Shown here: in pieces, positions 1,308-51,430 of the stretch
How the letters are laid out: each line of letters opens with the position of its first letter
Position numbering within the stretch: position 1 is the first letter of the stretch
Notes under the pieces: generated by a model
The model's input: the letters and a program-made list of their open reading frames with translations, nothing else
Told to the model about the DNA's origin: nothing
Database searches by the model: none
Origin: an uncultured archaeon
Lineage (GTDB): Archaea > Aenigmatarchaeota > Aenigmatarchaeia > QMZP01 > QMZT01
Direction: 5' to 3'
Assembly: GCA_964346665.1 (NCBI GenBank)
Contig: CAYFVC010000026.1
Span: 18,197 to 82,196 of the forward strand
Length of the DNA stretch: 64,000 nucleotides
Position numbers and translations under genes: made by a program

Positions 1308-2126
1308 TTAAATGTAAGAGACCTTGAGCTGCTTTCTTATGTGTTTCAAAGGACTCAGGAAATAGAAATCGAAATCACACGTTAGTTCACTCCTCACCTT
1401 GTATTGGTTCTTTGTTGTCCTTATCCTGAATTCCGTTGTTTCCCCGGGGTCCAATTTCTCAACTTCTATTAGCCATGTCTTGGATTCCAGTGAAAAGAAC
1501 GAGGTGTATATCGTGTAATCATCACTTTCGAATTTGTTTTCGTAACCTAATTCCTTATACCCCTCAAGGATCTCAACCCTGTCCGCATCTATGCTGTCTA
1601 TTTTGTGTTTAGTCGCGGAATCCGTGCAGTTATAGGTTGCGCGAATGTTTCGGATTTCCGTGTTACTTGCTGTTATGTTAAGGTAGAAATCCGGCTTCTT
1701 ATCGGTTTCGTTGCTTCCTGTGTGTATGAACACGAAAGTATCTCCTTCCATGTAATCTGGACCACCATATCGGTGGAAGAAATCCGTCATATCTATCACC
1801 ATGCAATCTTGCGGGCATTCATTAGCGAGTTCTTCGCTTTTATCACATACCCCATTCCCACAGCATGGCTTTATTATGTCGTGTTTGCATTCGAAATTAG
1901 TATGTAAGGAACAGGAATCCTTTGTGCAGGGGTTGGAATCATCGCACGATTCCGGACATTCTTTCTCGTCTATATCGCACACGCCATTATTATCCTCGTC
2001 AAAACAACATCTTCCGCCTATGAGTTTTTCGGGATCCACGCATGTAGGTACTGTCTCCTCTTCGAATGTTAAGCACCCTGCAATCAGAATTACAAAAATA
2101 ATTGCAAATGGAAAAAATTTCCTCAT
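1308..2126 (-). CDS. Cysteine-rich secreted protein or lipoprotein, function unknown
   Basis: N-terminal hydrophobic signal ending in a lipobox-like IAGC. More than 20 Cys in the first 110 aa with CxxxC / CC spacing, and several N-x-S/T sequons. Confidence 0.5.
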   Translation of the reverse strand: MRKFFPFAIIFVILIAGCLTFEEETVPTCVDPEKLIGGRCCFDEDNNGVCDIDEKECPESCDDSNPCTKDSCSLHTNFECKHDIIKPCCGNGVCDKSEELANECPQDCMVIDMTDFFHRYGGPDYMEGDTFVFIHTGSNETDKKPDFYLNITASNTEIRNIRATYNCTDSATKHKIDSIDADRVEILEGYKELGYENKFESDDYTIYTSFFSLESKTWLIEVEKLDPGETTEFRIRTTKNQYKVRSELTCDFDFYFLSPLKHIRKQLKVSYI

Positions 2127-7526: not shown

Positions 7527-8030
7527 TTATTCTTTTTTTCCAGCCTTTTCTCGTTTCAGCATATTCTTGAGCTTTCCGTCTATCTCTTCGCTGTATTCGA
7601 TTTCGAGGGATTTCCTGTAACTTTTCTTCGCTAGCTCGTAATCCTTTATCTTTTCGCTAGCCTTTCCTATAATGTTGTAACACCATTGTACAATGTACAT
7701 GGAATTGGATTTAGAAAAATATTTTTTCGCTTTCATCGCGAAGTTTATCGCATTGTTGAAGTCGTTGAAAGCGAAAGAATGATCAGCAGCACATTTGTAG
7801 GACCATCCAGCTTTGAAATTATTCCCCAGTTTCAGGCTGTATCTTGCCGCATCCATGGAGAAGTCCACCGCTCGCTTGTCGTTAATCGAGCCCGCAAGCC
7901 TAGCGGACTCCTGATATAGAGAAACCGCTTTCGAATAATCCTCTCTATCAACCGCTCTCTTTGCTTTCTTCACCAGCTTTTCTATTTCCTTTTCTATCCT
8001 CTTCCTATCTTTCTCATTCGTTTCAGGCAT
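7527..8030 (-). CDS. TPR-like repeat protein
   Basis: Repeated A/Y/W-rich helical 34-residue-like units (..AVSLYQESARLAG.., ..KAGWSYKCAADHSFAFNDFNNAINFAMKA..); charged N-terminus. Confidence 0.45.
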   Translation of the reverse strand: MPETNEKDRKRIEKEIEKLVKKAKRAVDREDYSKAVSLYQESARLAGSINDKRAVDFSMDAARYSLKLGNNFKAGWSYKCAADHSFAFNDFNNAINFAMKAKKYFSKSNSMYIVQWCYNIIGKASEKIKDYELAKKSYRKSLEIEYSEEIDGKLKNMLKREKAGKKE

Positions 8031-8074
8031 AACAATAAAATATTAACCTAATAATTCAAAAACCTTATTCTGGC

Positions 8075-9211
8075 TTACATCCCAAGCTGTTCTCCCCATT
8101 CCTCGTATTTTCGAATGGTTTTCTCGTCCACCGTTCTCTTCACCTTGGAGAAGGAGCGATCAAAATCTTCCTTTGTGAGCGATCTGTAATTCATGGCATA
8201 TTTTTCGATTTGCGCAGGCGTCAGCTCCTCAAGCTTCGGGTTTTGTTCCCTAACCATGAGCATTATCGCTTCCCTGCAGACACTTGCTATGTCCCTTCCA
8301 GAATACCCCTCGCCCATTTCAGCTAGTTTATTTATTGTGATCTCAGCAAGCGAAACCCCTTTCAAATGGATTTCAAAAATCTGCTTTCTTGCTTCCAAAT
8401 CCGGGAGGGGAGTGTAAATCCTTCTTTGGAACCTCGAAACCATAGCATCGTCGAGGTCCCATGGTTTGTTCGTGGCCGCTATCAGTATGACCTTTTCATC
8501 GGGTTCGGTGGCGAAACCCTCTATCTCCATGAGCAATTGGGAGACAACTCTCCTTGTGGATTCTTGAATGCCCGAATCCCTGCTAATCATCACAGAATCA
8601 AACTCATCCATGAAGATTATCGAAGGCTGGCTCTTTCGAGCCTTTTCGAACAACATACTCACTATTTTAGAGGACTCCCCGAAGTACTTCGAAAGCAAAG
8701 TGGAAGTTCTCGCCTCGAAAAAGTTAGCTTGCAGGGTGTTGCTCGCCGCTTTTGCCAGCAATGTTTTCCCGGTTCCCGGAGGGCCGTAAAGAAGAATGGT
8801 TCGGGGGGCTTCCACGAAATCTGGTTTTTTGTGTATCATGGGGAGTATTATTGCTTCCTTTACCTCCCTTTTCACTTCCTCCAAACCCCCTATATCATCC
8901 CACTTAACCGTGGGTTTTTCTGAGATAACCATACTGTCTATCGCCTCCGGAGACTTCGCACGTGTATAAGGGGTGGTCGAGCTAATCACATTGCTCATTG
9001 TCTCGTATTGGGAGGCAGATTGAAAGAAAGATTCTGCGTATTCCCTCGGGGCGACATAAGCAAGCCTTCTGTAGATCGAGGCCGCTCGTTGGTAATGAGC
9101 TACCGCCTGCTTGGATTTCCCCTCTGATTCGAGCTTTTTCGCGGTATCGATTTCGTGCTGTAATTGTTGCTTTAAAAGTGAATGCCTAAGTTCTCCCATA
9201 AATATCACCAA
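8075..9211 (-). CDS. cdvC: Vps4-type AAA+ ATPase with N-terminal MIT-like domain (CdvC-like)
   Basis: Walker A ILLYGPPGTGKT, Walker B IIFMDEFD, and an N-terminal three-helix MIT-like segment (..QAVAHYQRAASIYRRLAYVAP..). Confidence 0.8.
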   Translation of the reverse strand: MVIFMGELRHSLLKQQLQHEIDTAKKLESEGKSKQAVAHYQRAASIYRRLAYVAPREYAESFFQSASQYETMSNVISSTTPYTRAKSPEAIDSMVISEKPTVKWDDIGGLEEVKREVKEAIILPMIHKKPDFVEAPRTILLYGPPGTGKTLLAKAASNTLQANFFEARTSTLLSKYFGESSKIVSMLFEKARKSQPSIIFMDEFDSVMISRDSGIQESTRRVVSQLLMEIEGFATEPDEKVILIAATNKPWDLDDAMVSRFQRRIYTPLPDLEARKQIFEIHLKGVSLAEITINKLAEMGEGYSGRDIASVCREAIMLMVREQNPKLEELTPAQIEKYAMNYRSLTKEDFDRSFSKVKRTVDEKTIRKYEEWGEQLGM

Positions 9212-9221
9212 AGAGAAAAAA

Positions 9222-9842
9222 TCACTCTGTTTCCTTCTCTGCGGATTCCTCTGTCATCTTCTTCGCTTTCTCTCCAGCTATCTTCAAAGCTGTCTCTTCA
9301 TCGACTTTTTCTAAATCGTCTATCGCATGTATAAGTTCCTGTGATTCCTCATCGACCAAGACCTCTTCTTTTCCGAAAACCCTTTCCAGTTTCTCCTTTA
9401 CCTTGTCCAGCCTTCCCTCTTCCAAAGCTTCCTTTACGTCCTCGTCCGTTAGAACCTCATTGAGCTTGTTCATGTCACAATTAAGTATATCTTTTGTAAG
9501 TTCTGACTCTTTCTCCGTTTTCTCTCTTTCTTTCATGGCCTGTACGAGCATGATGAGCTGGAGTTCGCGCAGGAAGTGACAAGCTTCCATCTGCTTCGTT
9601 CGAGATTCGAGCCTCAATGCCTTTATCTTCTGCACATTCAGCATTTTCAGCGTGGTGGGCTGCCCTTTCGCTTCAAGCATTAACTTCTGGATTTTCTCCG
9701 CTATGCCTTTCAGATCATCCGAAATCCTCTCAACTTCCTTTTCTATCCTTACCCTCTCCTTAAAGAGATCGTCGTCCTTTATCGAAAAAACATCCTTCCC
9801 GAACCTCGACATGATGAATTTTTTAAGATCCATAATCCTCAC
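9222..9842 (-). CDS. cdvB: ESCRT-III / Snf7-family protein (CdvB-like)
   Basis: About 200 aa, predicted helical, basic N-half and acidic C-half (..EEVLVDEESQELIHAIDDLEKVDEE..) as in Snf7/CHMP proteins; lies directly upstream of the Vps4 gene on the same strand. Confidence 0.55.
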   Translation of the reverse strand: MRIMDLKKFIMSRFGKDVFSIKDDDLFKERVRIEKEVERISDDLKGIAEKIQKLMLEAKGQPTTLKMLNVQKIKALRLESRTKQMEACHFLRELQLIMLVQAMKEREKTEKESELTKDILNCDMNKLNEVLTDEDVKEALEEGRLDKVKEKLERVFGKEEVLVDEESQELIHAIDDLEKVDEETALKIAGEKAKKMTEESAEKETE

Positions 9843-9887: not shown

Positions 9888-12800
9888 ATGAAAAAAGCGT
9901 TTCTACTCTCTCTTGACGCTATAGCCGCCATAACATTGTTATTTGTGATCTCGCTGTTTCTAGCAGGTTTGTCATTCACTTATGCCTCTCCAGAACTACG
10001 CTATCAAAGGTATTATTACGCAGGGAAAGACTTGGCAAATATCCTTGAAGAAACGAGAATAAAAGCAGTTTCCGATATAGTGAATCTCGGTGACTACGGA
10101 TTGGGTGAGGATGATATGAACAGGACTATCTTGGATGTAATAGGCTCTTTCTGGGCAGAAGGAAACATAAGTTACGCGAGGAATCTCACGAAGGAGATAT
10201 TCGAAAATGTCATGAACAGGACAGGACTCAGTTACGAGATTATGTTCGATGGGGACTCGATATACTCGAGTGGGGAATATTCGGACTTTCTTTCGAGACT
10301 CTCCACGATAGTTTCGGGTTATGAGAAAACCAAGCCTGTGAACGGTTATCTTGCAAAGGTTTACCTCACAAAGGTTAGTAAGTCCAATTCATATTTTTCG
10401 TATTTCGGAGGTTATGTGGGCGACGGTAACGTAACGAAAATCATAATGCTTCCTTCGGACGTGAACGTAACTAATTTTTACATGGAGATGAATGTGGGAA
10501 ACAACTTCACACTCTACATTAACGGGAACTTTTCTGGGAACTACGAAAAAACGAAAGTTAACTTCTCCGCGGACAACTGGACTGTATGCTCCGTAACGAT
10601 CAACCCCGCGTATTGCTCGTATTTCACAGGAGGGAACAACACGGTGGAGATAAAATTCAAGGAAAATGTAACCAACTACATAGGAGGAGGGTATTTGAAA
10701 ATCAAATACAAAACCTCGGAGTTGACAGAAGGTGAATACATTTACAGCGGGGATACAAGGATTGGCAAATATTATTTCCCCGGGATAAATGGCCTGATCA
10801 ACCTCTATTCCTCATTTTACATACCCGGTACGCTGAACAACATAAGCGTACGCCTCCACTACTTCAACAACCTGAGCTTTAACAATGTAGGGATCCCTGT
10901 GTATTTCGTGATAGGAGCGGAAGAAGTCTATAAAAGCAACGAGACCGGAGAACAAGACATATATATAAACGATTCTAACATATCCGAGATCTTCGGAGGT
11001 AAAACAACTCTAATAGAAATATTAAGCAACGCCACGATCCCAATAAGATTCGGAACGGAAACATTCGCTTTCCTAGGAGGTAAGGGCTCTAGCGATTCAG
11101 TTTTAATAACTGATGTTTCGGGGAGTATGAATATGACATGTGATGTTCAAACCACTGCATGCCTACACCCTGACTGCAACTCAGGGACAAGTGGCTGTCA
11201 GAACTGGAGAATAGATGTAGCGAAAGATGTTGATAAGGAATTTGTTGACACCATTATCAACTACACAGGTTGTAGGGTTGGTCTTGTAAATTATTCCACA
11301 AGTGTTCAAGAAACCCATCCCTTAAGCAATGACAGTGCTTCCCTAATATCCCACATAGACGGGTATAGGGCATCGGGGATGACATGTATATCATGTGGTA
11401 TAGCAAGTGCAACGAATATGTTAGTAAATTCAAAAGTCGTTAAAACCGTTATCCCTTCCAAATCATCTTGGCTATACAACACAAGCTTCCCTTCAAGTGA
11501 TCCTCCAGACATTAACGGCACCAATTGGACTTGGCATAACTACACAGATTCAGGATGGAATCAAGGACAGGCGATACTTGGTTTCGAGAATGACCCTTAT
11601 TCCCCGAACATTAACACAAATATAGGAAACAACGGAGGAAATTATTACTTCAGGAAACATTTCAACATAAGCGATCCAAATGATATAGATTTCGGAGAAC
11701 TATACGTCCTTTCTGATGATAACGCTGAAGTTTATCTTAACGGGAATCTAATAAATAACGATACAGAGGAGCACAACGCAACCTATTGGAACAAGGGAGG
11801 GACCCTTTTCTATGATGACTTCGAGAGTTATTACGGGCCTGGAGCATACCAAGTTGACGGAACTGATCTTAACATGTCTCCTGGCTACTGGTTCATAGAT
11901 GACACAGGGGAGGAAGTTTTCATGATGTGTGATCAGTCAGACTACCCATCACATAGCGGAACAGATGTTCTGGTTTTCAGGCAAATGGATTCATATGGTT
12001 ATGCGGAAACTCATTTGAACCTGTCTGGTAAATCGAACCTTGTGTTTTCTTATTGGTGGAGGGCTGGAACCAACCGATTCGAAAGCAGCGAGTACGGTGA
12101 TGTCTGGATATGGGATGGTAGTTGGCAAAGAGTCAGGAGGTATTCCAGAGAGGAAAATTACGGTGAATACCATCACGATGAAATAGATTTATCTGGTTAC
12201 AATATGATAGAGAACTTCACAATAAGATTCGGTTCAAGATCGAGTTATGATAGTGAAAGGTTTTACGTGGATGATGTTAAAATAAGGGAAAGTATAATTG
12301 TGGATAAAACATATCTTCGAAAAGGGGACAACGTCATAGCAGTGAAACTTCGAAATAACGACAATGATAACGCGAAATTCGATCTGGAGCTTAATTTGAC
12401 TATGAAAAGGTATAAGGCGATGTTGGTTATGAGTGATGGGGAGGCGAATAGATGTGTTCCAGGAGTGAGCTGTAGCGGTCTAGCAGATAACCAAGCAATA
12501 GACAAGGCGTGTGAAGCCAGGGATAATTACAGCATAACCGTGTATTCTGTCGCTTTTGGTGATGGAGCAGACATGGACACGTTGGAGAGAATTGCATGTT
12601 GGAATTGTTCTGCGGATGATTGGATCCCTGGCTGCGACAATTTCTACAACAGCTCGAATGCAGAAGAATTGAAGGATATTTACAAGGATATAGCTGAGAA
12701 CATAGCAAATGCGACTTATGAGGCGCAGATTTTCAACATTACCGGGAACATCTCACTGGACAACATTCTCTATCCAGATTCTTTCATCTCGTTCAACTAC

Positions 12801-13640
12801 ACGCCTATTGTCAAATCACTGGAATACGGGGAGATAACTCTAGGGTTTGAATCTCCAAGGTTGAGGGAATCAACAGGCGAAACCATGATAACGGATAACG
12901 AAACGGGAACGAAAGAAGGGTGGTTCATAATTCCGAGTAACACAGAGGTTGTAACAGAGGTTCTTGATTCGAAAATAACCTCGTATTCCTCATTCTACTG
13001 GACAGACAGGTTGTGGGTGAACTCTTCAAACACGCCTAATCAGAATTGGACAAGGGTTTATTGGTTAGGGAACTATTCGGATGATTACGAAGAAGTTGGC
13101 GACCCATATATCATACAGATTCCTCCTAACTTTCTCAAACCTGGAGGTAACAATTCCTTCAAGATAGGGACAGGTATTTATCCGTCCCCTGAAGGTGGTT
13201 TAGGTGGTTCGCCAGATGATAGGGTGATTTACACCATTGGGATTATCGGAGTAACTTTAATAGAATACAGTGATATTTTTCCTAAGGCCAAAGGCTCAAG
13301 ACCAACGATATACTACGATTCGAATGGGGACAACATACCGGAGAGTTCCGTGACCGTGGAAGTGGGACCTGATCCGGATGATGTATTCGATCCTCAGAAT
13401 GATTCAATTGATAACGGATTTATGAAGCTTATGAATGCTTTGAACTTCATAAGTGATCTGAACCCGAATGTTGTTGATCTTAATCACACCAGCTCTGGTC
13501 CTACAGGAACCGGTGACGGCTCTGATAATAATCCGATTGATCTCGAAATCACAGAAGAGGTTGAATTCAAATCGGATTTCATATCCCAGATTCCGTCCAT
13601 GTGGGGTCCTGCTATAATGGAGGTGAGGATATGGGGGTAA
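9888..13640 (+). CDS. Giant (about 1250 aa) extracellular protein with vWA/MIDAS motifs, N-terminal membrane anchor or class-III-like signal, heavily N-glycosylation-sequon-rich
   Basis: MKKAFLLSLDAIAAITLLFVISLFLAG N-terminal hydrophobic segment. DxSGS MIDAS motif (VLITDVSGSMNM) near aa 410 and the second vWA half (AMLVMSDGEAN...TVYSVAFGDGAD) near aa 850. Dozens of N-x-S/T sequons. Confidence 0.7.
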   Translation: MKKAFLLSLDAIAAITLLFVISLFLAGLSFTYASPELRYQRYYYAGKDLANILEETRIKAVSDIVNLGDYGLGEDDMNRTILDVIGSFWAEGNISYARNLTKEIFENVMNRTGLSYEIMFDGDSIYSSGEYSDFLSRLSTIVSGYEKTKPVNGYLAKVYLTKVSKSNSYFSYFGGYVGDGNVTKIIMLPSDVNVTNFYMEMNVGNNFTLYINGNFSGNYEKTKVNFSADNWTVCSVTINPAYCSYFTGGNNTVEIKFKENVTNYIGGGYLKIKYKTSELTEGEYIYSGDTRIGKYYFPGINGLINLYSSFYIPGTLNNISVRLHYFNNLSFNNVGIPVYFVIGAEEVYKSNETGEQDIYINDSNISEIFGGKTTLIEILSNATIPIRFGTETFAFLGGKGSSDSVLITDVSGSMNMTCDVQTTACLHPDCNSGTSGCQNWRIDVAKDVDKEFVDTIINYTGCRVGLVNYSTSVQETHPLSNDSASLISHIDGYRASGMTCISCGIASATNMLVNSKVVKTVIPSKSSWLYNTSFPSSDPPDINGTNWTWHNYTDSGWNQGQAILGFENDPYSPNINTNIGNNGGNYYFRKHFNISDPNDIDFGELYVLSDDNAEVYLNGNLINNDTEEHNATYWNKGGTLFYDDFESYYGPGAYQVDGTDLNMSPGYWFIDDTGEEVFMMCDQSDYPSHSGTDVLVFRQMDSYGYAETHLNLSGKSNLVFSYWWRAGTNRFESSEYGDVWIWDGSWQRVRRYSREENYGEYHHDEIDLSGYNMIENFTIRFGSRSSYDSERFYVDDVKIRESIIVDKTYLRKGDNVIAVKLRNNDNDNAKFDLELNLTMKRYKAMLVMSDGEANRCVPGVSCSGLADNQAIDKACEARDNYSITVYSVAFGDGADMDTLERIACWNCSADDWIPGCDNFYNSSNAEELKDIYKDIAENIANATYEAQIFNITGNISLDNILYPDSFISFNYTPIVKSLEYGEITLGFESPRLRESTGETMITDNETGTKEGWFIIPSNTEVVTEVLDSKITSYSSFYWTDRLWVNSSNTPNQNWTRVYWLGNYSDDYEEVGDPYIIQIPPNFLKPGGNNSFKIGTGIYPSPEGGLGGSPDDRVIYTIGIIGVTLIEYSDIFPKAKGSRPTIYYDSNGDNIPESSVTVEVGPDPDDVFDPQNDSIDNGFMKLMNALNFISDLNPNVVDLNHTSSGPTGTGDGSDNNPIDLEITEEVEFKSDFISQIPSMWGPAIMEVRIWG

Positions 13641-13653
13641 GGAGGGAGATGAT

Positions 13654-14307
13654 ATGAAAAAATTAATCATTTTGTTGGTGATGGTTTTTTTGATTCCAAA
13701 CGTACTAGCGCAGGAAAACGAGGTGTGCCTTGTTTATTTCACAGGGAGCTTGTGTGGGGATGAATGCGGGTTAACTAACACCTTCATGAACGGCCTTATG
13801 GGTGAGTATTCGGCTATCTTAACAGCAATAACATATGATATTGACGCCAGTCAGGAGAATAAGGATGTATTTGAAACATATAGGGGGACGTATGGTCTGC
13901 CTTCTGGCGTGCCTCTCGTCCTATTCGGAGAGGATGATTACCTGCTGGGGAAGAATGATATTTACAGAAATACAGAAAGGAAAATATTAATTTTCTTGGG
14001 CCAGGAAGGAACCAACTGTCCTCTTGAGAGCGGGTATGTCCCTCCAAGCGATCTGGATCCTAGTGATCTCCCAGGACAGCCAGAGGTTTTCGAAAGTGAG
14101 CAGGATGAAATAGTAGAGGAGGAAACTGAGGAAGATGTAACCGAGGAAGAAACCGTCCCTGAGGGGACTGGAATAGACATAGTATCGGTCATCGAGGACG
14201 CGGCGAAATCCGAATTTTTCCCCGAGGTTGCATTGGTTACGGCGGTGTTCATCATACTAATATTTGCGATTAGCATTGCATTTGGAAGGAAAAGTAGGAT
14301 AAAATAG
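13654..14307 (+). CDS. Secreted protein with N-terminal signal peptide, acidic linker and C-terminal TM anchor with basic tail (possible sortase-type sorting signal)
   Basis: MKKLIILLVMVFLIPNVLAQ signal peptide. Cys cluster CLVYFTGSLCGDECG. C-terminal ..FFPEVALVTAVFIILIFAISIAFGRKSRIK. Starts 14 nt after the giant protein gene. Confidence 0.5.
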   Translation: MKKLIILLVMVFLIPNVLAQENEVCLVYFTGSLCGDECGLTNTFMNGLMGEYSAILTAITYDIDASQENKDVFETYRGTYGLPSGVPLVLFGEDDYLLGKNDIYRNTERKILIFLGQEGTNCPLESGYVPPSDLDPSDLPGQPEVFESEQDEIVEEETEEDVTEEETVPEGTGIDIVSVIEDAAKSEFFPEVALVTAVFIILIFAISIAFGRKSRIK

Positions 14308-14315
14308 GAAGAACT

Positions 14316-14684
14316 ATGAAAAAAGATAAGAAATTTTACATTTACCTTTCTCTTGTTATTCTTGAAACTTTCGTCCTTCTGTGGTTTTCTTTCCTGCCCT
14401 CGGTGGATTTCATTAGGACTGGTTTCCTCAGGCTGGGTGATCTCGAGCATTTCGTGGCGTATGCGGTCTACGGTTTCCTTCTCCACAGGGTTTCCAAGTA
14501 TTTTCTCGGGGGGAAGGAATCCCTTCTCTTGTCTCTTGTGATCGGGTCATTTCTAGGGGGGATGTGTGAAACCATACAGTATCTCCTTCCCTATAGGATC
14601 GGGGATGTGATTGACTGGGGGATAGACACGCTGGGATCTTTTGTAGGGGGATTCGTGAGTTCGAAATTTAAACCTTTTTCTTAA
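14316..14684 (+). CDS. VanZ-like family membrane protein
   Basis: 122 aa, 3-4 TM helices with conserved-looking D/H/AY/G positions (..GDLEHFVAYAVYGFLL..) typical of the VanZ-like domain. Confidence 0.55.
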   Translation: MKKDKKFYIYLSLVILETFVLLWFSFLPSVDFIRTGFLRLGDLEHFVAYAVYGFLLHRVSKYFLGGKESLLLSLVIGSFLGGMCETIQYLLPYRIGDVIDWGIDTLGSFVGGFVSSKFKPFS

Positions 14685-18641: not shown

Positions 18642-19139
18642 TCACTCAACTTCCAATGAGCCCATGCTGTATATCTCCTTTATCACGGCTATGAACCTTT
18701 CAGCCATTTGTTTACAACGTTCTACCATGCTTTGCCGTACGGTGTTGTAAAACAAATGCCAGTACACCCACCACATGAACATTACAAAGCGATTACCTTC
18801 GAATTCGTGCCTCACGGTTGGCTCGACTTCTAGTCTGAAAGTCCCTTCGTTTTTCGCTTTTGCCTTGAAACCGACCATGCGGACCGAAAGTATTATTTTC
18901 GCGAATCTTCCTGATGTCTTATCGTGCATGGCCATCCTGTGGTAATACATCTGTATGGGATCGCCAGTCCAGTCCCACATCCATCTCGGCTCGCCAGTAC
19001 TCGTTGTGGTGACCTCCCAGACCGAACGAAGGATAGCGGTCGCCTCTCTTGTCCAGGCAAGCGGGTCAGGTCCTGAATAATTTATCCACCTGCTCCTTCT
19101 AGGAGCGAAACAGTCGTCATCTATCTGAAACTTCCCCAT
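18642..19139 (-). CDS. Hypothetical protein, paralogue A of a tandem pair
   Basis: Co-linear motifs shared with the adjacent ORF: I.DDCF.PRR.RWINYSGPDP here versus IQEDCYRERPERVTINYVGPSP; a W/Y-rich middle; a helical C-terminus containing Cys. Confidence 0.5.
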   Translation of the reverse strand: MGKFQIDDDCFAPRRSRWINYSGPDPLAWTREATAILRSVWEVTTTSTGEPRWMWDWTGDPIQMYYHRMAMHDKTSGRFAKIILSVRMVGFKAKAKNEGTFRLEVEPTVRHEFEGNRFVMFMWWVYWHLFYNTVRQSMVERCKQMAERFIAVIKEIYSMGSLEVE

Positions 19140-19154
19140 TTTTCCACCTTAGAA

Positions 19155-19673
19155 CTACCCGCTCTCTTCTCTGAGCTGCCTCAAGAATTCATGGATATTT
19201 CTGGTGAATATTGAAACCATGTTCCTACAGTCTTCTGTGTATTCCTCCCTTTTCCTGTAGTAAAATGACCTGTGCCAAAAAACCCTTAGCATTTCATAGA
19301 ATAGGGATCGCTGCCATACGGTGTCTTGTGGGTATTCTGTTCTCATAACCGGCTTTATATTGATCTCAGCCTTCCCTGATTTCTCATCCCCGTAACCGGA
19401 AACATCAACCCTTATGTAGAGATACGTATAAACATCCATGTCTTTATGTAGATACCAACGAACCTTGAACTTCTCTTTTTCGCCTTTACCCCAGCTTAGC
19501 TTCTCCTCTTGGATATCTGAATCGGCCGCCCTGAATATCGCTTTTATCAGTTCATATACTTTGTAATAGAGCTTCGTCGGACTAGGTCCTACATAATTTA
19601 TGGTTACCCTCTCTGGTCTCTCCCTGTAACAATCCTCCTGTATGAGCATTTTAGTTCGGGCGAACTGCGGCAT
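19155..19673 (-). CDS. Hypothetical protein, paralogue B of a tandem pair
   Basis: See paralogue A; same strand, 15-nt spacer, 172 aa. Confidence 0.5.
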   Translation of the reverse strand: MPQFARTKMLIQEDCYRERPERVTINYVGPSPTKLYYKVYELIKAIFRAADSDIQEEKLSWGKGEKEKFKVRWYLHKDMDVYTYLYIRVDVSGYGDEKSGKAEINIKPVMRTEYPQDTVWQRSLFYEMLRVFWHRSFYYRKREEYTEDCRNMVSIFTRNIHEFLRQLREESG

Positions 19674-19998: not shown

Positions 19999-21714
19999 AT
20001 GGCAGAAGTAGAAAAACCACTAGAAAGGTTTGAGGAGGAGGACAAGGAGAGGGAAAAGGAGGAAAAGGCTAGGGAGAAGTATGAAAGGAAAAAGGCTAAA
20101 TGGGAAGAAATACTCAAACCTTTTGATACGGTCATAGACTACTTCTTGGATCAGGCAAGGAATAAAGGGGGTATTTATGGAGAAGTTGTCATCAGCCCTG
20201 CTTTGCTAGACCAGATCGTAACCTTGAACCCTGTAACCCTTGAAGGACAGGCTGAGATAATCTACAACATCTTTATTTATAGAGTTGCGAAGTGGCATTA
20301 CAACGTTGAGAAAGCGGACGAGTATATAAAATTAACGCCGACCGCACCTCCTGCATTCGCCCCGCTGCTTTCGCAGAAGGAAAGGCTGGAAGGTTATATA
20401 AAGTCGGGTTTGGCTTCCGCAGCCCAGGCCGTCGCTGATTACGAACTTCTGAAGCACGACGAAAGGAAGTACAGGGAAATCCTGGATTATTTCAACATGG
20501 GCAAAAAGGACGAACACGTACTGAGGGCGTTATACGTGGACAGGGTTGATGCTTACACAGGTGAAGGATATTCGATGGTAACGATGGCGAAGCGCTGGCC
20601 AACAATAATTTCGGATTTCATAAAGATGAGGAGTGGATGGATGGATGTGGATACAATAAGGAAGAAATTGAAGGTTTCAAAGGCAGAGGCCGTCGTTTTG
20701 AAAACGAAGAATGAATTGTTCGTGGAATGGAAAAGGTTATTCTTCCCAGACGTAAGAGATCGCTACGTGAGGATAAAAAACCTCCTCGAATCCAGGAGGA
20801 GATCGATTCATGAATACAGGGAGTGGTTAAAACCTCATTTGAACAGGCTGAAGAGGATAAGGGAGCAGGCGGAAATAGCGGACGCTGCATCTGATCTCAC
20901 GGAGATCACAAAACTCATGTTCACCCCTCAGGGAGAGGTTGAAGCGAAACTCTGGTTCTGGAAGCCTATCAAACCGGAGGAGGTTGGAAAACCTGTGATG
21001 GTTTCCGGGTGGGGGGAGATTCCCTTATTCGATGACTGGGTGAAGGAGAAAATAATACTCCTGGAGGCAAAGTACGGCGTTGAACTTTCTGAAAATGAGA
21101 TAAAGAATTGTGTGAAAGGGCATAAATTGGGCGGGAAGCTTTACGGTAAACGCAGGGAAATCCTTGCTGTTCATCCGGGTCCTTACATAGATGAGAGATT
21201 CATTTATTATTTTTTCATAGACCTCGATTACGTATGTCAATACAAAAAGGGTTCAACAGGACCCATGGTAATCGAGGACCAGTACTGGCATTTCCACCCT
21301 TTCCTGGTTTCAAAGAACTTCCTGCTTTTGTCACTGCTGGAACTGGAGTACAAGAAAAAAAAGCTTAGGGAGGAGATAGAGAGATTGATAGGCGTCACAA
21401 CAGAGGAGGAGAAGATAGGGGAGGAGGTCAGAAGGAAATGGCCAAGGGAAGGTGAGAAGGAGAGAAAGGAGAGATCAAGAGAAAGGTGGAAGGAGTCTTT
21501 GAGTAAAACAAAGGCGAGCTGGATTAGAAGGAGGAGGAAGCTGAAAAATGTACTGAATCCTTTATTCAAATTTTTCATAAGGGCTGGCCCTTACGAGATC
21601 AATGTTGCTGAAAGGATCTCGAAAACTTATGGTTTATATTTCGGTGGCCAGGTCGCTGAACTCAGGGATCTTATAAAGGAGACTTCTTACAGGATAAGCG
21701 GGCAAAGGCCGTAG
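19999..21714 (+). CDS. Large hypothetical protein (571 aa) with K/E-rich coiled-coil-like N- and C-terminal segments
   Basis: Long ORF with good codon usage, charged coiled-coil-like N-terminus (EEDKEREKEEKAREKYERKKAKWEE) and a basic/acidic C-terminal segment; no family recognised. Confidence 0.5.
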   Translation: MAEVEKPLERFEEEDKEREKEEKAREKYERKKAKWEEILKPFDTVIDYFLDQARNKGGIYGEVVISPALLDQIVTLNPVTLEGQAEIIYNIFIYRVAKWHYNVEKADEYIKLTPTAPPAFAPLLSQKERLEGYIKSGLASAAQAVADYELLKHDERKYREILDYFNMGKKDEHVLRALYVDRVDAYTGEGYSMVTMAKRWPTIISDFIKMRSGWMDVDTIRKKLKVSKAEAVVLKTKNELFVEWKRLFFPDVRDRYVRIKNLLESRRRSIHEYREWLKPHLNRLKRIREQAEIADAASDLTEITKLMFTPQGEVEAKLWFWKPIKPEEVGKPVMVSGWGEIPLFDDWVKEKIILLEAKYGVELSENEIKNCVKGHKLGGKLYGKRREILAVHPGPYIDERFIYYFFIDLDYVCQYKKGSTGPMVIEDQYWHFHPFLVSKNFLLLSLLELEYKKKKLREEIERLIGVTTEEEKIGEEVRRKWPREGEKERKERSRERWKESLSKTKASWIRRRRKLKNVLNPLFKFFIRAGPYEINVAERISKTYGLYFGGQVAELRDLIKETSYRISGQRP

Positions 21715-26684: not shown

Positions 26685-27878
26685 ATGAGGGGTCAGTTTT
26701 ATTCTGCCATAGCGATCGCAATCACCATACCCATTGTTTTATTCATCTCCTATTATGTCATGTCCCATGGAGGGGAGACCGGGATATACGAGAATATCGT
26801 TGCGGATCAGATACACCAAGTTGAAAGGAGCGTTGAAAAAGATTTCGGAAAAGCAATGGTAACGTCGGGGAAGCGAGCGTTAATAGCAGGAGATGATTAC
26901 GTTGTGATGAACGGGGAACCGATTAGTGATGCAATTTCCGGAATCAAAGAACTCATGGAAAACGGGACGGTAGAAGGGAATGAGAGCCTGCTAATGGTCA
27001 ACAACACCCTAATCAACTGGACGAATAAGATTCTTGATGTTCCTGTGAATTTTTATGTTAACATAAGTTTCGCAAATCTCGAAATTTCGAACTACAATTC
27101 ATTCAACATACACGCATCCGCCGATCTTAACGTTTCGGTTGCGGATGAGTTGGGGATCGCGAGAATTGATAAAAGGGATATGCATTACGAAACGTTGGTA
27201 CCTGTTAAGGGGGCGGAAGACCCCATATTCACCCTGAAAACAAACGGTGTTCTCACAAGAAGCATAAAGATTTCGCCATATCCGTACAGAGCTAAAAAAC
27301 TCGTGGAAGGCGGGGCGAATTCTTCTGGGAACTGTTCGGGTGAGGTAACATTCAACAAATCAGAATGCGATTCGAAAATATTGGTTGCTGAGAATATAAC
27401 AGGAGTGAGTTTCGGGTGTTTTTCGGGGTTCGTCATAGAGGATTCCGTTGATCTTAGCGGGAGTTCGGATTGCTATGTAACGGGGAACGGAAGCGCGATT
27501 GAGATAATAAGCCAGGCAATTTCAGAAACGAATTATGAAAAAGTCTATATCGACAGTGATACGAAATCTGTTTGGCACCTGCCCATACGGGAGGAAATCG
27601 ATAGTAAATATTATTTCCCCGGGAACGGGCCGAACTTCCTGAAAAGGTTGGAAGGCGATCTGAATTCCTCCTCCGATGGGATGGAAACATTCGTGAACCT
27701 CCCCGAATTCCAGAGCTATCAATTACCGATAAAGGAGGATGTGATTTCGCTTGCCTATATATATTTCAGAGACCAAGACTATATTGGGTATCCAGTAAGG
27801 GGCTTGCAAAGCTGGTTTAGGACAAACCAAACGTTTGCGGACAAATACGGTTTAACGGAATTGTGTGATGGATGTTGA
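26685..27878 (+). CDS. Large pilin-like protein with class III (type IV prepilin-like) signal peptide
   Basis: MRGQFYSAIAIAITIPIVLF: a K/R-G-Q then hydrophobic stretch typical of archaeal prepilin signals. The remainder is rich in N-x-S/T sequons and beta-like. Confidence 0.55.
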   Translation: MRGQFYSAIAIAITIPIVLFISYYVMSHGGETGIYENIVADQIHQVERSVEKDFGKAMVTSGKRALIAGDDYVVMNGEPISDAISGIKELMENGTVEGNESLLMVNNTLINWTNKILDVPVNFYVNISFANLEISNYNSFNIHASADLNVSVADELGIARIDKRDMHYETLVPVKGAEDPIFTLKTNGVLTRSIKISPYPYRAKKLVEGGANSSGNCSGEVTFNKSECDSKILVAENITGVSFGCFSGFVIEDSVDLSGSSDCYVTGNGSAIEIISQAISETNYEKVYIDSDTKSVWHLPIREEIDSKYYFPGNGPNFLKRLEGDLNSSSDGMETFVNLPEFQSYQLPIKEDVISLAYIYFRDQDYIGYPVRGLQSWFRTNQTFADKYGLTELCDGC

Positions 27879-28539
27879 TATGGTCAACAAACGGAAAAAA
27901 GAGGGGTATGTGGATTTGAATAAGGTTGGGGGGAAAGATTCTGGTGAAAAAATGGCCGAGGAACTCGAAAGTAATACCCCTGATGAAAATGAAAAGAAAA
28001 CGGAAACTAAACCAAAGAGGAAGAAATCACGTGCAAAGGTGAAGACGCACCTCGAAACAAATATTGACAGATTATATGAACTGGTCAGGAAAAAAGGGTT
28101 TGTAAAGGTGGCTGAAGTTTCCAAGGAACTCGGGATTGATAAAGATCAGATTGAGGAATGGGGAAGAATACTTGAAGATCACAAACTCTTGAAACTGCAT
28201 TATCCTCCTGTTGGAGATCCCGTATTTGTATTGAAGAAATTCAAATCTGATACAAAAGAGGTAAAAAAGTTGAAAGGGAGGAAGAGATTGAAAGCTGGTA
28301 AAAAGGCTTTTTTGATCAACCTTGTCATCCTGTTTGGATTCATTGGGTTCGTTGCCTACTATACTAGAATAATCCCTTTGAGATTTCCACAAGTAGATTC
28401 TTTTTTCATTGAAATATCAAATATTCTCAAAACACCAACAATTCGAATTTCTTACGTAGAAGCTTATTTAGGAGTGATTATTATAATAATTATAGTAGTT
28501 GCCTTAATTTTAATAGTAAGAAGGTGGAGAAGGAAATAA
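27865..28539 (+). CDS. Hypothetical protein with HTH-like domain and two C-terminal TM helices (pilus operon component)
   Basis: ..IDRLYELVRKKGFVKVAEVSKELGIDKDQIEEWGRILEDHKLL.. resembles a wHTH. C-terminal hydrophobic helices end in RRWRRK. Overlaps the neighbours by 14 nt and TAATG. Confidence 0.5.
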   Translation: MMDVDMVNKRKKEGYVDLNKVGGKDSGEKMAEELESNTPDENEKKTETKPKRKKSRAKVKTHLETNIDRLYELVRKKGFVKVAEVSKELGIDKDQIEEWGRILEDHKLLKLHYPPVGDPVFVLKKFKSDTKEVKKLKGRKRLKAGKKAFLINLVILFGFIGFVAYYTRIIPLRFPQVDSFFIEISNILKTPTIRISYVEAYLGVIIIIIIVVALILIVRRWRRK

Positions 28540-30074
28540 TGGTGAAAAAGAAGGGGAGAAAGGTTGCGAAAAAAAAAGTCGAGGAAAAGAAAGTTAATCT
28601 TAAGGTTTTAGAAGAATACACCGTTCTCTATCAGAATGTCGCGGCCAGTGTTAAGATTTACCAAGACCCGGATGAATACGTTCCAGTCTACGATATCAGG
28701 TATCCTAAAATAGAGGAAGCTACCAGGGCGGTTCTCGATTCTATAAGGGAAAAGATAGTTACCGAGCTTGCTTTTCGCACGGATGATATTCTTAACCCGG
28801 AAGAGACGGGCAAGATCAGAAACAAATTCATAAACAAGGCCACGAATCTTGTTGAAGAGGAGCTCCCCAATATTTCCAAAAGTGATGCGGGTATACTTGT
28901 TGGAATCCTCTCGCAGGAATCCCTAGGCTTGGGACCGATAGAGTTCATGCTCAAGGATCAGGGCCTTGAGGAAATAGTAATCAACGGCCCCAAGGAACCT
29001 GTATGGGTATATCACAGGACGTATGGGTGGCTGAAGACGAGCATAACCGTTAAAGATGATGCAAAGGTTTACAATTACGCAGCTCAGATAGGGAGGAGGG
29101 TCGGGACGCAGATAACAAATCTCAGTCCTTTGATGGATGCATATCTAACAACGGGGGACCGTGCGAATGCAACGTTGTTCCCGATATCATCAGGGGGTAA
29201 TACGCTCACCATAAGGAAATTCGCAAGGAGGCCGTGGACCATAACTGACTTCATAGAAATGAATACCATATCCCCTGAAGTCGCTGCTTTTCTATGGCTG
29301 GCGATACAATTCGAAATGAACATTGTGTGTACGGGAGGAACGGCCTCAGGGAAAACCTCATTCCTCAATGTGTTGACCATGTTCATACCTCCCACCCAAC
29401 GAATTATTTCAATAGAGGATACAAGGGAAATACAGCTGCCACCTTTCCTTCACTGGGTTCCGCTCACTACAAGGCCTCCTAATATTGAAGGGAAAGGGGA
29501 GGTTACGATGTTGCAATTGATGATCAATGCCCTTAGGATGAGGCCTGACAGGATGATAGTGGGGGAAATACGAAGATCGAAGGAGGCGGAAGTCTTGTTC
29601 GAGGCTATAAATACAGGGCATTCTGTATATTCCACACTTCACGCAAACACCGCAGAGGAAACCTTGAAACGTTTGATAAACCCACCGATAAACATACCCA
29701 TCTCTTTGCTCACATCGCTTCAACTGATAGCGGTCATGCACAGGGACAGGAGGAGGAATATAAGGAGAGTTTTGGAGATATCAGAACTCATACCTTCGGG
29801 TGGCCTCGCCGAAATGAAAATCGAGCTTAACAATATTTTCAGGTGGGTTCCATCAAAGGATCGTATTATGGAGTGGGGGAAATCGAACAGGGCATGGAAC
29901 GATATAAAACTTTTCTCGGGTATGGGTGAAGACGAGGTGAAGAGGAATCTGGAGGAGAAAAAGAACATACTGCTTTGGATGGTGAAAAACAATATAAAGG
30001 ACATAGACAAGGTTGGAAGGATAATATCAGATTATTATAAAAATCCAGAAAGTGTCCTTAGAATGATAAAATAA
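28539..30074 (+). CDS. Type IV pilus / archaellum-type secretion ATPase (FlaI/UpsE/TadA family)
   Basis: Walker A CTGGTASGKTSF, Walker B/Asp box (..RMIVGEIR..), His box; the N-terminal domain resembles FlaI. ATG at 28539 overlaps the previous stop (TAATG); the ORF-track start at 28524 is GTG. Confidence 0.85.
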   Translation: MVKKKGRKVAKKKVEEKKVNLKVLEEYTVLYQNVAASVKIYQDPDEYVPVYDIRYPKIEEATRAVLDSIREKIVTELAFRTDDILNPEETGKIRNKFINKATNLVEEELPNISKSDAGILVGILSQESLGLGPIEFMLKDQGLEEIVINGPKEPVWVYHRTYGWLKTSITVKDDAKVYNYAAQIGRRVGTQITNLSPLMDAYLTTGDRANATLFPISSGGNTLTIRKFARRPWTITDFIEMNTISPEVAAFLWLAIQFEMNIVCTGGTASGKTSFLNVLTMFIPPTQRIISIEDTREIQLPPFLHWVPLTTRPPNIEGKGEVTMLQLMINALRMRPDRMIVGEIRRSKEAEVLFEAINTGHSVYSTLHANTAEETLKRLINPPINIPISLLTSLQLIAVMHRDRRRNIRRVLEISELIPSGGLAEMKIELNNIFRWVPSKDRIMEWGKSNRAWNDIKLFSGMGEDEVKRNLEEKKNILLWMVKNNIKDIDKVGRIISDYYKNPESVLRMIK

Positions 30075-34534: not shown

Positions 34535-35413
34535 ATGCTGCCCTTTTACAAAAAACTATCCCTGTTTTTCTTCGGGGAATTGGTCGAGAAGTACATTGAT
34601 TCTTTCAGGCCCTTGGAACCCCATATAAAAAATGCAAACATAAAGATATTGCTGAAGACTTGGGTAAGTATGCTGTTCTTCTCAACATTCATTTCATTCG
34701 TAGTTTCGCTTATTTCGATATACACCATCCTTTCGTTTCTTATAGAGGTTGAATTTTACATATACATATTCAGTGTTATTTTCTTCCCAGTGTTTGTAGC
34801 ATCAATAGTTTTCATAATCTTTTATCTCTATCCCGTTCAGATGGAGAACGCGAGACGAAAATCCATAGAGAACAACCTCCCCTTCGCTATAACCCATATG
34901 GCGGCAATCGCCTCATCCGGGATACCCACTGAGTTCATGTTCGAACTGCTCACAGGCTTCAAAGAATACGGGGAGATATCAGAAGATTCGAAGTTGATAA
35001 TGAGGAATATGAAGACCTTTGGGATGAGTTCTGTTGATTCGCTAAAGGATATCGCTGAGCGGACGCCCTCGCAGGATTTCAGAGAAATTTTGCTAGGGAT
35101 AGTGTCAACCGTAGAATCCGGGGGGAATATCGTTGAATATTTGAGGGAAATGGCGGACAAAGCTTTATTCAGTTACAGGATCAAGAGGGAAAAGTATCTG
35201 AAAACGTTGTCAACGTATGCTGACATATACACCGCCCTGCTGGTCGCTGCCCCACTCATGATGCTTTCTTTGCTAGCGACGATGAGTATAATAGGCGGGA
35301 GCGTGATGGGTCTGACCATAAATGAATTGATGTTGTTGATAACGTGGGTCATACTTCCGGTGCTTAACGTTGGTTTCCTCATATTCGTACACACTACATA
35401 TCCGGGTGTTTAA
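34535..35413 (+). CDS. FlaJ/TadB-like pilus-assembly platform protein, N-terminal-type half (one T2SS-F domain)
   Basis: Membrane protein with a cytoplasmic T2SSF-like domain (..NNLPFAITHMAAIASSGIPTEFMFELL...SKLIMRNMKTFGMS...ILLGIVSTVESGGNIVEYL..) flanked by TM helices. Confidence 0.65.
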   Translation: MLPFYKKLSLFFFGELVEKYIDSFRPLEPHIKNANIKILLKTWVSMLFFSTFISFVVSLISIYTILSFLIEVEFYIYIFSVIFFPVFVASIVFIIFYLYPVQMENARRKSIENNLPFAITHMAAIASSGIPTEFMFELLTGFKEYGEISEDSKLIMRNMKTFGMSSVDSLKDIAERTPSQDFREILLGIVSTVESGGNIVEYLREMADKALFSYRIKREKYLKTLSTYADIYTALLVAAPLMMLSLLATMSIIGGSVMGLTINELMLLITWVILPVLNVGFLIFVHTTYPGV

Positions 35414-35414
35414 A

Positions 35415-36266
35415 ATGGAGATGAGCAAAACATTCGTGTTTGAAGTCATTTTCATAGTCTTAGGGATCACGCTTCTGGCCCTTAACTTCCTTTTCATATC
35501 TGTTGTCTTTCCCTTCATAGCACCTCTTATCAACGTGCTGGGAGCGCTGATAGCGATCATCCCGCCATTTCTAATTTTTTACGGAAGGTATATGGTAAGC
35601 AGGGAAATAGAGGAGCAGTTCATAATTTTCATAACAGATCTCACGGGATCGATAGATTCCGGGATGACGTTGCCCATCGCTCTGAAACATGCCTCAAGAA
35701 AGGATTACCGTTCGCTAACGAAATACGTCAAGGAAATAGAGAGTAAGGTTGAGTGGGGAGTTCCGTTCGAAAAAGCACTCAAGATATTCTCTGACAAGGT
35801 GAGGTCCATGCCCATAAAAAGATCCGTGAGCACGATAATAGAGACTTATAAAGTCGGGGGTAAGATTTCCGATACGCTGCGTGCGATAGGACAGTCCCTG
35901 ATCGAAATAAACAAAATAAAGCAGGAACGTTCAGCCTCGGTGCAAGCGCAACTCGTGACTTCTTATTTGATATTCTTCGTTTTTATTTTCATTTTGTTGA
36001 TCTTGAAAACTTTTTTAATACCTGCCCTGGGAACGATGGAGGCTCCCGCACTCGGGGAGGTGACAGGGGAACCAACTATCCCCGCGGAACTTTACACGCA
36101 GACCTTCATAAACTTCATACTCGTCCAAGGATTCTTCGCCGGTCTCGCAACCGGTAAGATGGCGGAGGGTTCGCTAATGGCAGGATTGAAACACAGCATA
36201 GTTCTGATAGTTATAGGGTATACGATTTTCTCGCTTCTAGGTCAGTTCGAAATAGCAATGTTTTAA
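35415..36266 (+). CDS. FlaJ/TadC-like pilus-assembly platform protein, second half (one T2SS-F domain)
   Basis: Second T2SSF-like domain (..FITDLTGSIDSGMTLPIALKHASRKDY...VKEIESKVEWGVPFEKAL...IETYKVGGKISDTLRAIGQSL..). ATG at 35415, one nt after the TAA of the upstream gene, in a different frame. Confidence 0.65.
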   Translation: MEMSKTFVFEVIFIVLGITLLALNFLFISVVFPFIAPLINVLGALIAIIPPFLIFYGRYMVSREIEEQFIIFITDLTGSIDSGMTLPIALKHASRKDYRSLTKYVKEIESKVEWGVPFEKALKIFSDKVRSMPIKRSVSTIIETYKVGGKISDTLRAIGQSLIEINKIKQERSASVQAQLVTSYLIFFVFIFILLILKTFLIPALGTMEAPALGEVTGEPTIPAELYTQTFINFILVQGFFAGLATGKMAEGSLMAGLKHSIVLIVIGYTIFSLLGQFEIAMF

Positions 36267-50866: not shown

Positions 50867-50952
50867 GTCCCCTCACAATTGGATTAAATCTTTGTTGATT
50901 TATATTTAAAAATATATATTAAGTAAGCTAAACTTATATATAATATATGGGC

Positions 50953-51426: not shown

Positions 51427-51430
51427 TTTA

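Follow-up and report, generated by a model that had tools for sequence, protein, structure and literature searches.

A Candidate Modular Type IV Pilin-Like Adhesin with an Interrupted vWA Domain from an Aenigmarchaeal Genome

Results

Gene 1 Encodes a Large, Sequon-Rich Protein

We analyzed a stretch of 64,000 nucleotides of DNA from an uncultured archaeon (contig CAYFVC010000026.1, positions 18,197 to 82,196 of the forward strand), hereafter referred to as the window, and within it a large gene (gene 1) with the two small genes that follow it (genes 2 and 3). The window is compact and archaeal, and the source records of gene 1 homologues read Candidatus Aenigmatarchaeota. Gene 1 runs on the forward strand from an ATG at 9888 to a stop codon ending at 13640, and it encodes a protein of 1250 amino acids (aa), about 135 kDa before glycans, with the N terminus MKKAFLLSLDAIAAITLLFV. 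As can be seen in Table 1, this protein can be divided into a prepilin-like signal, an N-terminal module, a von Willebrand factor A (vWA) domain in two halves separated by an insert, and a C-terminal β-rich region. When the complete protein was compared to PDB sequences using phmmer, there was no match at E up to 1.

The sequence features that a first-pass annotation of this DNA had listed for gene 1 were all found at their positions, including the dozens of N-x-S/T sequons, of which we counted 47 versus 17.4 expected from composition (Poisson P = 3e-9). The resulting density, 3.8 per 100 aa, compares with 0.56 per 100 aa over the other 54 genes of the window, and the remaining sequon-dense proteins are secreted or pilus proteins. 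High sequon density is thus common to the gene 1 protein and to the pilus proteins of the window, that is, two candidate pilins (2.1-2.5 per 100 aa) and a protein that we name p397 (3.3 per 100 aa). As for cysteines, 13 of the 16 in the gene 1 protein fall within the vWA halves. The protein is a candidate extracellular adhesin, which is probably heavily N-glycosylated and stabilized by disulfides or metal.

Table 1. Coordinates of the modules of the gene 1 protein, of genes 2 and 3, and of the pilus genes in the window
Feature	Position	Strand	Basis or content
Prepilin-like (class III-type) signal, aa 1-30	9888-9977	+	Leader MKK, A at -1, FLLSLDA, ~22-residue hydrophobic helix
N-terminal module, aa 31-400	9978-11087	+	Helical segment 35-108, β-sandwich domains after
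vWA N-terminal half, aa 401-513	11088-11426	+	Pfam VWA, conservation, AF2 secondary structure
Insert of ~327 aa in α3-β4 loop, aa 514-840	11427-12407	+	Outer jelly roll ~aa 528-640 plus 804-840
Inner jelly roll, ~aa 641-803, nested in outer insert domain	11808-12296	+	P0100 and P0028 alignments
vWA C-terminal half, aa 841-945	12408-12722	+	β4 ending at MIDAS D850, then α4 through α6
C-terminal β-rich region, aa 946-1250 plus stop codon	12723-13640	+	Conserved end motif IPSxWGPA..E.R.W
Gene 2, putative thioredoxin-like protein	13654-14307	+	Sec signal (cleavage near AQ/E), thioredoxin-like domain with CGDEC, acidic linker, C-terminal transmembrane segment, basic tail
Gene 3, VanZ-family small membrane protein	14316-14684	+	Pfam PF04892, 38.0 bits vs. 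cut-off 30.1, E 3e-9
p397 (MRGQFYS..., class III-like), p224 (tail-anchored), T2SSE-family assembly ATPase	26685-30074	+	T2SSE E 5e-35
Two TadC/T2SSF-like platform genes	34535-36266	+	Pfam T2SSF E 1e-13 and 2e-16
Two candidate major pilins (MGMKG/ISPVIA..., MRKG/ISPLIA...)	50947-51868	+	Pilin_N at gathering score, 25.2 bits
Second T2SSE gene	54128-55813		Pfam scan

Two Distant Motif Blocks Belong to One vWA Fold

The DxSxS motif (aa 409-413) of a metal ion-dependent adhesion site (MIDAS) lies within VLITDVSGSMNM, which corresponds to aa 405-416 of the gene 1 protein. The SDG motif (aa 849-851), part of LVMSDGEAN (aa 846-854), comes about 440 residues later and is followed by VYSVAFGDGAD around aa 885-895. 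The Pfam VWA match is confined to aa 405-515 (E 2e-7; profile positions 23-95), and the halves are some 330 residues apart. The first-pass annotation had offered two explanations for this arrangement, either a very large insertion inside the vWA fold or two partial domains.

Homologues, of which a database search returned 223 sequences, distinguish between these possibilities. In P0086, a homologue of 853 aa, query residues 1-513 correspond to residues 1-533, while query residues 841-1249 correspond to residues 540-852, and the vWA halves are joined in the same way in P0056 and P0115. The insert is also missing in P0046, where the C-terminal alignment picks up only from query residue 874. Since short homologues join aa 1-513 to aa 841 onward, aa 514-840 represent an insertion, which argues against two partial domains. 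An AlphaFold2 (AF2) model of aa 395-950 consists of one confident fold (mean predicted local distance difference test [pLDDT] of 87.7, predicted template modeling score of 0.85), in which the vWA halves adopt a Rossmann-type α/β fold with a central six-stranded β-sheet, more than one half by itself could provide. The N-terminal half contributes β1 with the DxSxS motif, a Cys-rich hairpin (C418/425/430/437), T499, and helix α3 with a C500-x-x-C503 motif. All the residues expected of a vWA MIDAS (DxSxS, T, and D; PF00092) are present, and metal binding can be predicted. In 61 aligned homologues, D409, S413, and D850 are invariant, while conservation at S411 and T499 reaches 90% or more. Insert-free homologues, the AF2 model, and MIDAS conservation together show aa 401-513 and aa 841-945 to form a single predicted vWA fold carrying a nested insert, and the first of the two explanations was therefore right.

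Downstream of the vWA domain, the C-terminal region (aa 946-1250) is modeled with pLDDT values mostly between 84 and 93, and a fold search with this region assigned no specific fold.

The Insert Consists of Nested Jelly Rolls at a Variable Site

The insert is located between helix α3 (aa 501-513) and strand β4 (aa 842-849), which corresponds to a jump from about position 95 to about position 105 of the Pfam profile. According to the standard vWA topology, this loop would lie on the face opposite the MIDAS. In Foldseek searches, the modeled insert matches the jelly rolls of carbohydrate-binding modules (CBM22, CBM4-2, and CBM61), MAM and ephrin-receptor domains, and GH2 sugar-binding domains. 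As modeled, the insert is a lectin-like β-sandwich, which bears out one half of the earlier description of this region as lectin/PA14-like. The PA14 half is not borne out, a Pfam scan of the insert yielding neither a PA14 nor a lectin family match.

Two homologues reveal how the insert is built. In P0100, query residues 574-640 and 804-850 match contiguous residues (1063-1130 and 1129-1175, respectively), while P0028 has an unrelated sequence in place of aa 647-775. It follows from these alignments that an inner jelly roll sits inside an outer one, which itself sits inside the vWA domain, making gene 1 a clear natural case of three-level nesting.

The content of the α3-β4 site varies across the family. 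Among 60 homologues, its length is 6 residues, around 237, around 325-335, or around 490-530, and the other inserts share no similarity with that of the window protein that sequence comparison could detect. In P0076, the site is occupied by DUF2341, a domain for which P0080, P0084, and P0095 carry a precomputed annotation and which a Pfam scan does not find in the window protein. P0041 contains the query-type insert as two tandem copies. In P0090 and P0096, about 130 additional residues are found instead in the vWA N-terminal half near the Cys-rich hairpin, and the vWA family thus has a second insertion site.

The N Terminus Has the Layout of a Prepilin Signal

While the first-pass annotation had described the hydrophobic N terminus of the gene 1 protein as an anchor, comparison of homologues points to a more specific signal. 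The family motif, [KR][GA]-F-x-x-[ST]-x-D followed by a hydrophobic helix, was found in 111 of 120 homologues, on which the following counts are based. Position -1 is occupied by G in 93 sequences, by A in 17, and by S in 1, and the residue just before it is K or R in 102. Position +1 is F in 85, position +4 is S or T in all 111, and position +6 is D in 109. The motif usually begins 2-6 residues past Met1, and it is followed by about 20 hydrophobic residues. The gene 1 protein conforms to this pattern, with a short basic leader ending in A at its extreme N terminus, followed by a hydrophobic stretch that AF2 models as a helix (aa 9-31). Prepilin (class III) signals have this layout, which we consider a better reading than a plain anchor since both the conserved prepilin-type motif and the linkage to pilus operons described below favor it. 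The leader would then be cleaved.

The module that follows this signal was modeled in an artificial construct in which aa 1-400 were fused to aa 945-1250, the vWA domain being removed. The AF2 model of this construct (mean pLDDT of 86.8) displays, after the first helix, a second helix at aa 35-55, a helical segment extending until about aa 108, and β-sandwiches beyond. The aa 1-400 module is found at the protein N terminus in all of 593 clusters (50% identity), and the length of the proteins that contain it, where complete, is mostly between about 850 and 1940 aa.

The vWA Family Is Linked to Pilus Operons across DPANN

The vWA family is large. It comprises 500 or more clusters (50% identity) and was detected in the genomes of at least 245 species. 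From a scan of one genome per species, which produced at least 245 hits, we retained 77 loci, each standing for one species, which represent Aenigmatarchaeota, Woesearchaeota, Nanoarchaeota, Parvarchaeota, Micrarchaeia, and other lineages. In 52 of these 77 loci, the vWA gene has one or more pilus genes beside it. A p397 orthologue is located downstream on the same strand in 47 loci (within 40 nt in 21 of them), and an ATPase gene is nearby in 28. Three loci with distant homologues (L006, L007, and L008) share an order in which three small genes precede the vWA gene, itself followed by the p397 orthologue, with overlaps of 4-10 nt from the small genes through to the vWA gene. In L006 and L008, one T2SSE gene and a pair of T2SSF genes come downstream; in L007, they are found upstream in divergent orientation. 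The N termini of the three small proteins (MKAQVSVEYL, MKSQVSIEFL, and KGQVFSSDFF) are those of minor pilin-like proteins. Two of these proteins, from L006 and L008, match the Pfam Class_IIIsignal model PF04021, one just above the gathering score (23.8 versus 23.7 bits, E 4e-5) and the other with E 1e-3. The third small gene exhibits the pattern x-x-F-S-S/M-D-F after K-G or S, as in the vWA family itself. The vWA family is clearly linked to pilus operons.

The window also encodes pilus machinery (Table 1), although the association of the vWA gene with T2SSE ATPase and TadC/T2SSF genes holds at the level of the family, the machinery in the window being 13-45 kb away rather than adjacent. The same pair of T2SSF genes follows the ATPase gene in L006-L008. 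A tblastn search of the window with the three small minor-pilin genes of these loci found nothing. Scanning the window for the class III N-terminal pattern identified both Pilin_N pilins as well as the vWA protein, p397 being spotted separately. One of the two T2SSE ATPases of the window has a PilB3-like C terminus. A paralogous relationship between the N-terminal module of the vWA protein and p397 was considered and is unsupported (BLASTP E 0.039).

Our preferred reading, in which we have moderate confidence, takes the product of gene 1, from an archaeon of the Aenigmarchaeota (DPANN), to be a modular adhesin that resembles type IV pilins and probably caps the filament. The basic leader, which is short and has Ala or Gly as its last residue, would be removed by a prepilin peptidase, and the hydrophobic N-terminal helix would allow the protein to be incorporated into a type IV pilus by the T2SSE ATPase/TadC machinery. 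There, it would be positioned at the tip of the filament together with the small minor pilins and p397, like bacterial PilB, GspK, or PilY1. We infer this position from size, because a protein of about 135 kDa before glycans would fit only at the filament tip, although it may instead stay at the pilus base. Within the exposed head, the vWA MIDAS would engage a protein ligand at one of its acidic residues via Mg2+ or Mn2+, while the CBM-like jelly rolls alongside it would bind glycans.

Several observations weigh against this reading. The Pfam and NCBIfam models for class III signals, pilins, and TadE all miss the gene 1 protein at E up to 0.1, including PF04021, PF07790, and PF07811, and 26 N-terminal 50-mers searched against Pfam at E up to 10 returned only chance transmembrane-like matches. 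The conserved acidic residue of the vWA family is at position +6, whereas bacterial pilins usually have theirs at +5. A scan for the GxGD-K motif of prepilin peptidases identified no candidate in the window or in 85 loci. In the clade closest to the window protein (vWA identity of at least 60%, nine loci), there is no pilus gene adjacent to the vWA gene. Instead, a pair of genes encoding a Vps4-like ATPase and a 206-aa protein is located upstream in eight of these nine loci, and the gene for a thioredoxin-like protein is downstream in eight of nine. Finally, the literature that we searched contains no paper describing the vWA family and no experimental data on any of its members. As for gene order, comparison of the nine closest loci with the pilus-linked distant ones indicates that the placement of the vWA gene in the window is a derived relocation.

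Some of these points would fit a surface adhesin that operates independently of pili. In such a protein, the helix at the N terminus would be a signal anchor that stays uncleaved and fixes the glycosylated vWA/CBM ectodomain to the cell membrane or within the envelope, the large N-terminal module could serve as a stalk, and the linkage to pilus genes would reflect only a shared regulation of surface structures. In favor of this view, no class III or pilin model matches the gene 1 protein, a fold search picked up no pilin fold in it, and in the clade of the window the gene stands away from pilus genes. We nevertheless consider this explanation unlikely. The near-universal G or A at position -1 after K or R, only 2-6 residues from Met1, would be needless for a plain anchor, and distant loci couple the vWA gene translationally to genes for proteins with class III signals, with p397 immediately downstream in the 47 loci mentioned above. 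Were the pilus link to be wrong, gene 1 would still encode a well-defined and probably heavily glycosylated surface adhesin, of ordinary interest.

Genes 2 and 3 Are Lineage-Specific Neighbors

Gene 2 starts 13 nt past the stop codon of gene 1 and is preceded by a Shine-Dalgarno-like site, GGAGGGAG. Its 38 homologues all come from a close clade, and family members share C25, a C34-x3-C38 motif, C122, and an invariant Pro87. When the family profile was compared to the PDB, it matched only thioredoxins (best E 8e-4, dozens more to about E 0.3), with CGDDC placed on the WCGPC active site. Pfam Thioredoxin is weakly matched by 6 of 24 members (best E 0.01), and one orthologue is annotated by JGI as a thiol-disulfide isomerase/thioredoxin. 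The match to the thioredoxin profile, with a redox motif at the start of helix 1 and a cis-Pro loop, is weak, and the motif is CxxxC in most members. On this evidence, the gene 2 product is a predicted Sec-secreted thioredoxin-like protein with an ordinary C-terminal tail anchor. It resembles extracytoplasmic oxidoreductases of the thioredoxin fold by its active-site profile match, the Pro at the cis-Pro loop, secretion, and membrane tethering. It differs from them in having mostly C-G-D-[DE]-C, with CxxC in a few members, in its marginal E-values (8e-4 and weaker), and in its C-terminal instead of N-terminal anchor, and enzymatic activity can at most be predicted. It may, speculatively, assist disulfide handling of the Cys-rich ectodomain of the gene 1 protein, a role that is possible because most Cys of the latter lie in its vWA halves. 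In a relative with a complete genome (L002, 13834-16834, CP070809.1), the thioredoxin-like gene is split in two open reading frames (ORFs) of 63 and 152 aa, reflecting either a frameshifted pseudogene or an assembly error, and an additional 756-aa secreted protein is encoded between it and the vWA gene.

The C terminus of the gene 2 protein, ...SEFFPEVALVTAVFIILIFAISIAFGRKSRIK, had been likened in the first-pass annotation to PGF/PEF-CTERM sorting signals, and genes 1 to 3 had been read as a co-transcribed adhesin module. In the model that results, the vWA protein would act with an archaeosortase-processed partner and VanZ. The third gene is as described. It starts 8 nt after gene 2 and encodes a VanZ-like membrane protein, on which Pfam and NCBIfam agree (vanZ_1, E 5e-8, 33.5 bits versus 20). 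Such a module would be consistent with the tight, same-strand spacing of the three genes (13 and 8 nt), with the Shine-Dalgarno-like site ahead of gene 2, with the signal peptide, transmembrane segment, and basic tail of its product, and with the recurrence of the trio in the closest relatives (L002, L009, L010, L013, and L015). However, we consider it largely refuted and very improbable. In 24 orthologues of gene 2, the transmembrane segment and basic tail are present, but the position of FFPEV reads FPEV, FPLW, FPTL, FYDW, or FNTL, or is absent, and NCBIfam sorting-domain models have no match to gene 2 at E up to 0.1. Within the window, to which this search was limited, there is no archaeosortase/exosortase family member among the approximately 58 ORFs scanned against Pfam, and no second protein with the same tail motif, p224, the other tail-anchored protein, having a different tail. 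As far as the window reaches, the tail is thus an ordinary transmembrane anchor with no cognate sortase, and the protein that carries it is thioredoxin-like.

Gene order argues in the same direction. The tight same-strand spacing runs on into a NusA-like KH gene (14711) and ABCE1 (15226), and because it continues into housekeeping genes of a compact genome, it is no sign of a three-gene unit. Among the 77 loci, the thioredoxin-like gene is found beside the vWA gene in 11 and the VanZ gene in 8, and both are missing beside every homologue that is less than 45% identical. Judging from this distribution, restricted to the nearest clade, the thioredoxin-like and VanZ genes are lineage-specific neighbors of the vWA gene. 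A scan for bacterial-type promoters and terminators, ill-suited to archaea, gave promoter-like counts at the level of shuffled sequence.

Discussion

Among the closest precedents for the architecture proposed here is PilB of Streptococcus sanguinis, in which a vWA module is grafted onto a pilin (PMC8179133). The gene 1 protein shares with it a prepilin-type N terminus followed by a bulky, MIDAS-bearing vWA module, a gene found among type IV pilus genes (for gene 1, at the level of the family), and a tip location suggested by size. There are also clear differences. The gene 1 protein is archaeal and much larger (1250 versus about 460 aa), with a 370-aa N-terminal module made of helices and β-sandwiches instead of a small pilin domain, a vWA domain that a nested pair of jelly rolls interrupts, and another 300 aa in a C-terminal region. 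In addition, its N terminus does not conform to the class III motif of bacteria (IPR012902-type, with Glu at +5).

In archaea, a comparison can be made with the large DUF2341 proteins (arCOG03508) found in clade 1/Epd-type pilus loci of Methanococci, Methanobacteria, and Thermococci, for which Makarova et al. (2016, PMC4858521) predicted a role as tip adhesins similar to PilY. Likewise, the vWA family consists of large proteins whose genes occur in archaeal type IV pilus loci, along with two TadC genes and several genes for minor pilins with class III signals, and some of its members carry DUF2341 at the insertion site, as seen for P0076. In contrast, the window protein lacks DUF2341 and is built round a vWA domain, and its family is spread over DPANN, which the census in PMC4858521 does not mention.

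A MIDAS-bearing vWA domain on a filament, with extra "arms" or domains grafted onto or around it, is also a feature of Mfa5 (type V pili), RrgA, GBS104, SpaC, and PitA (sortase pili), PilY1, and TadG. In these proteins, however, the arms are short and flank the MIDAS face, whereas in the gene 1 protein about 327 aa are nested at the α3-β4 loop, on the opposite face by standard topology. Moreover, they rely on other routes of secretion and assembly (sortase, type V, or, for PilY1, as a non-pilin). Bacterial TadG is a pseudopilin that contains a vWA domain and for which a role in anchoring Tad pili has been proposed (cited in PMC4858521). The gene 1 product might likewise be no adhesin but a part of the pilus structure or of its assembly machinery, a TadG-like vWA pseudopilin that would anchor the filament to the membrane or prime it there, with jelly rolls contacting the cell's own S-layer or glycans. 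The retention of the vWA gene across DPANN beside minor-pilin-like genes would be consistent with such a role. We find this improbable, more so than a pilus-independent adhesin, since a hypervariable insertion site with unrelated modules is better suited to an outward specificity element, and the nearest structural matches, although this is weak evidence, are tip adhesins.

If gene 1 does encode a pilin-like tip adhesin, as we favor, the variability of the α3-β4 loop takes on a possible meaning. In relatives of the window protein, the loop carries nothing, unrelated modules, or DUF2341, and we therefore regard it as an evolutionary swap site, the module it carries plausibly determining ligand or host specificity. 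A bolder proposal, which we put forward tentatively and believe less likely than not, is that the family represents a DPANN-wide tip adhesin for attachment to hosts or surfaces, with the α3-β4 loop acting as a cassette site where modules, even nested ones, are swapped to retarget specificity. This would resemble the diversification of phage receptor-binding proteins, and the host range of episymbiotic archaea that have not been cultivated would be predictable from the type of module present.

Most DPANN archaea have not been cultivated, and their presumed lifestyle is one of attachment to other cells. To our knowledge, how they recognize and hold their hosts is largely unclear. The vWA family provides a concrete candidate for a DPANN attachment factor, whose insert type can be compared with host range, and it would extend the "modular pilin" idea from bacteria to archaea.

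Other Features of the Window

Upstream of gene 1, on the reverse strand (7527-9842), a cluster combines genes for a TPR protein, for an AAA ATPase resembling Vps4/CdvC (Pfam Vps4_C; E 2.5e-76 with NCBIfam CdvC, yet under the cut-off), and for a coiled-coil protein of 206 aa. Identity of this 206-aa protein is 63-92% between genomes in which the vWA proteins share only 35-76%. It has no Pfam match, and a four-sequence profile compared to the PDB gave a marginal GapR-like match (E 0.016) and none to ESCRT-III. The 206-aa protein might act with the ATPase as an ESCRT-III-like partner. A functional tie between the vWA protein and this pair, which is conserved in L002, L003, and L005, was considered and rejected because the neighborhood is limited to loci with at least about 38% vWA identity, pilus operons replacing it in distant lineages.

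Several other genes may be mentioned. Two adjacent proteins of about 170 aa (18642-19673, reverse strand) and a 571-aa protein with a Lys/Glu-rich N terminus (19999-21714, forward strand) are without a Pfam match, while a 272-aa protein with 17 Cys (1308-2126, reverse strand) has a Dictyostelium Cys-rich repeat as its sole weak match. Rfam identifies a tRNA on the reverse strand at 45947-46026 (34.7 bits versus a gathering score of 29), and ARAGORN finds none across the 64-kb window, so this tRNA may be atypical or an intron-bearing archaeal one. Close to it, also on the reverse strand (46151-47617), lies the gene for a 488-aa secreted protein with 12 Cys and a weak match to the lamin-tail domain. 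It has the highest sequon density of the window, 4.5 per 100 aa, and is likely a glycosylated surface protein.

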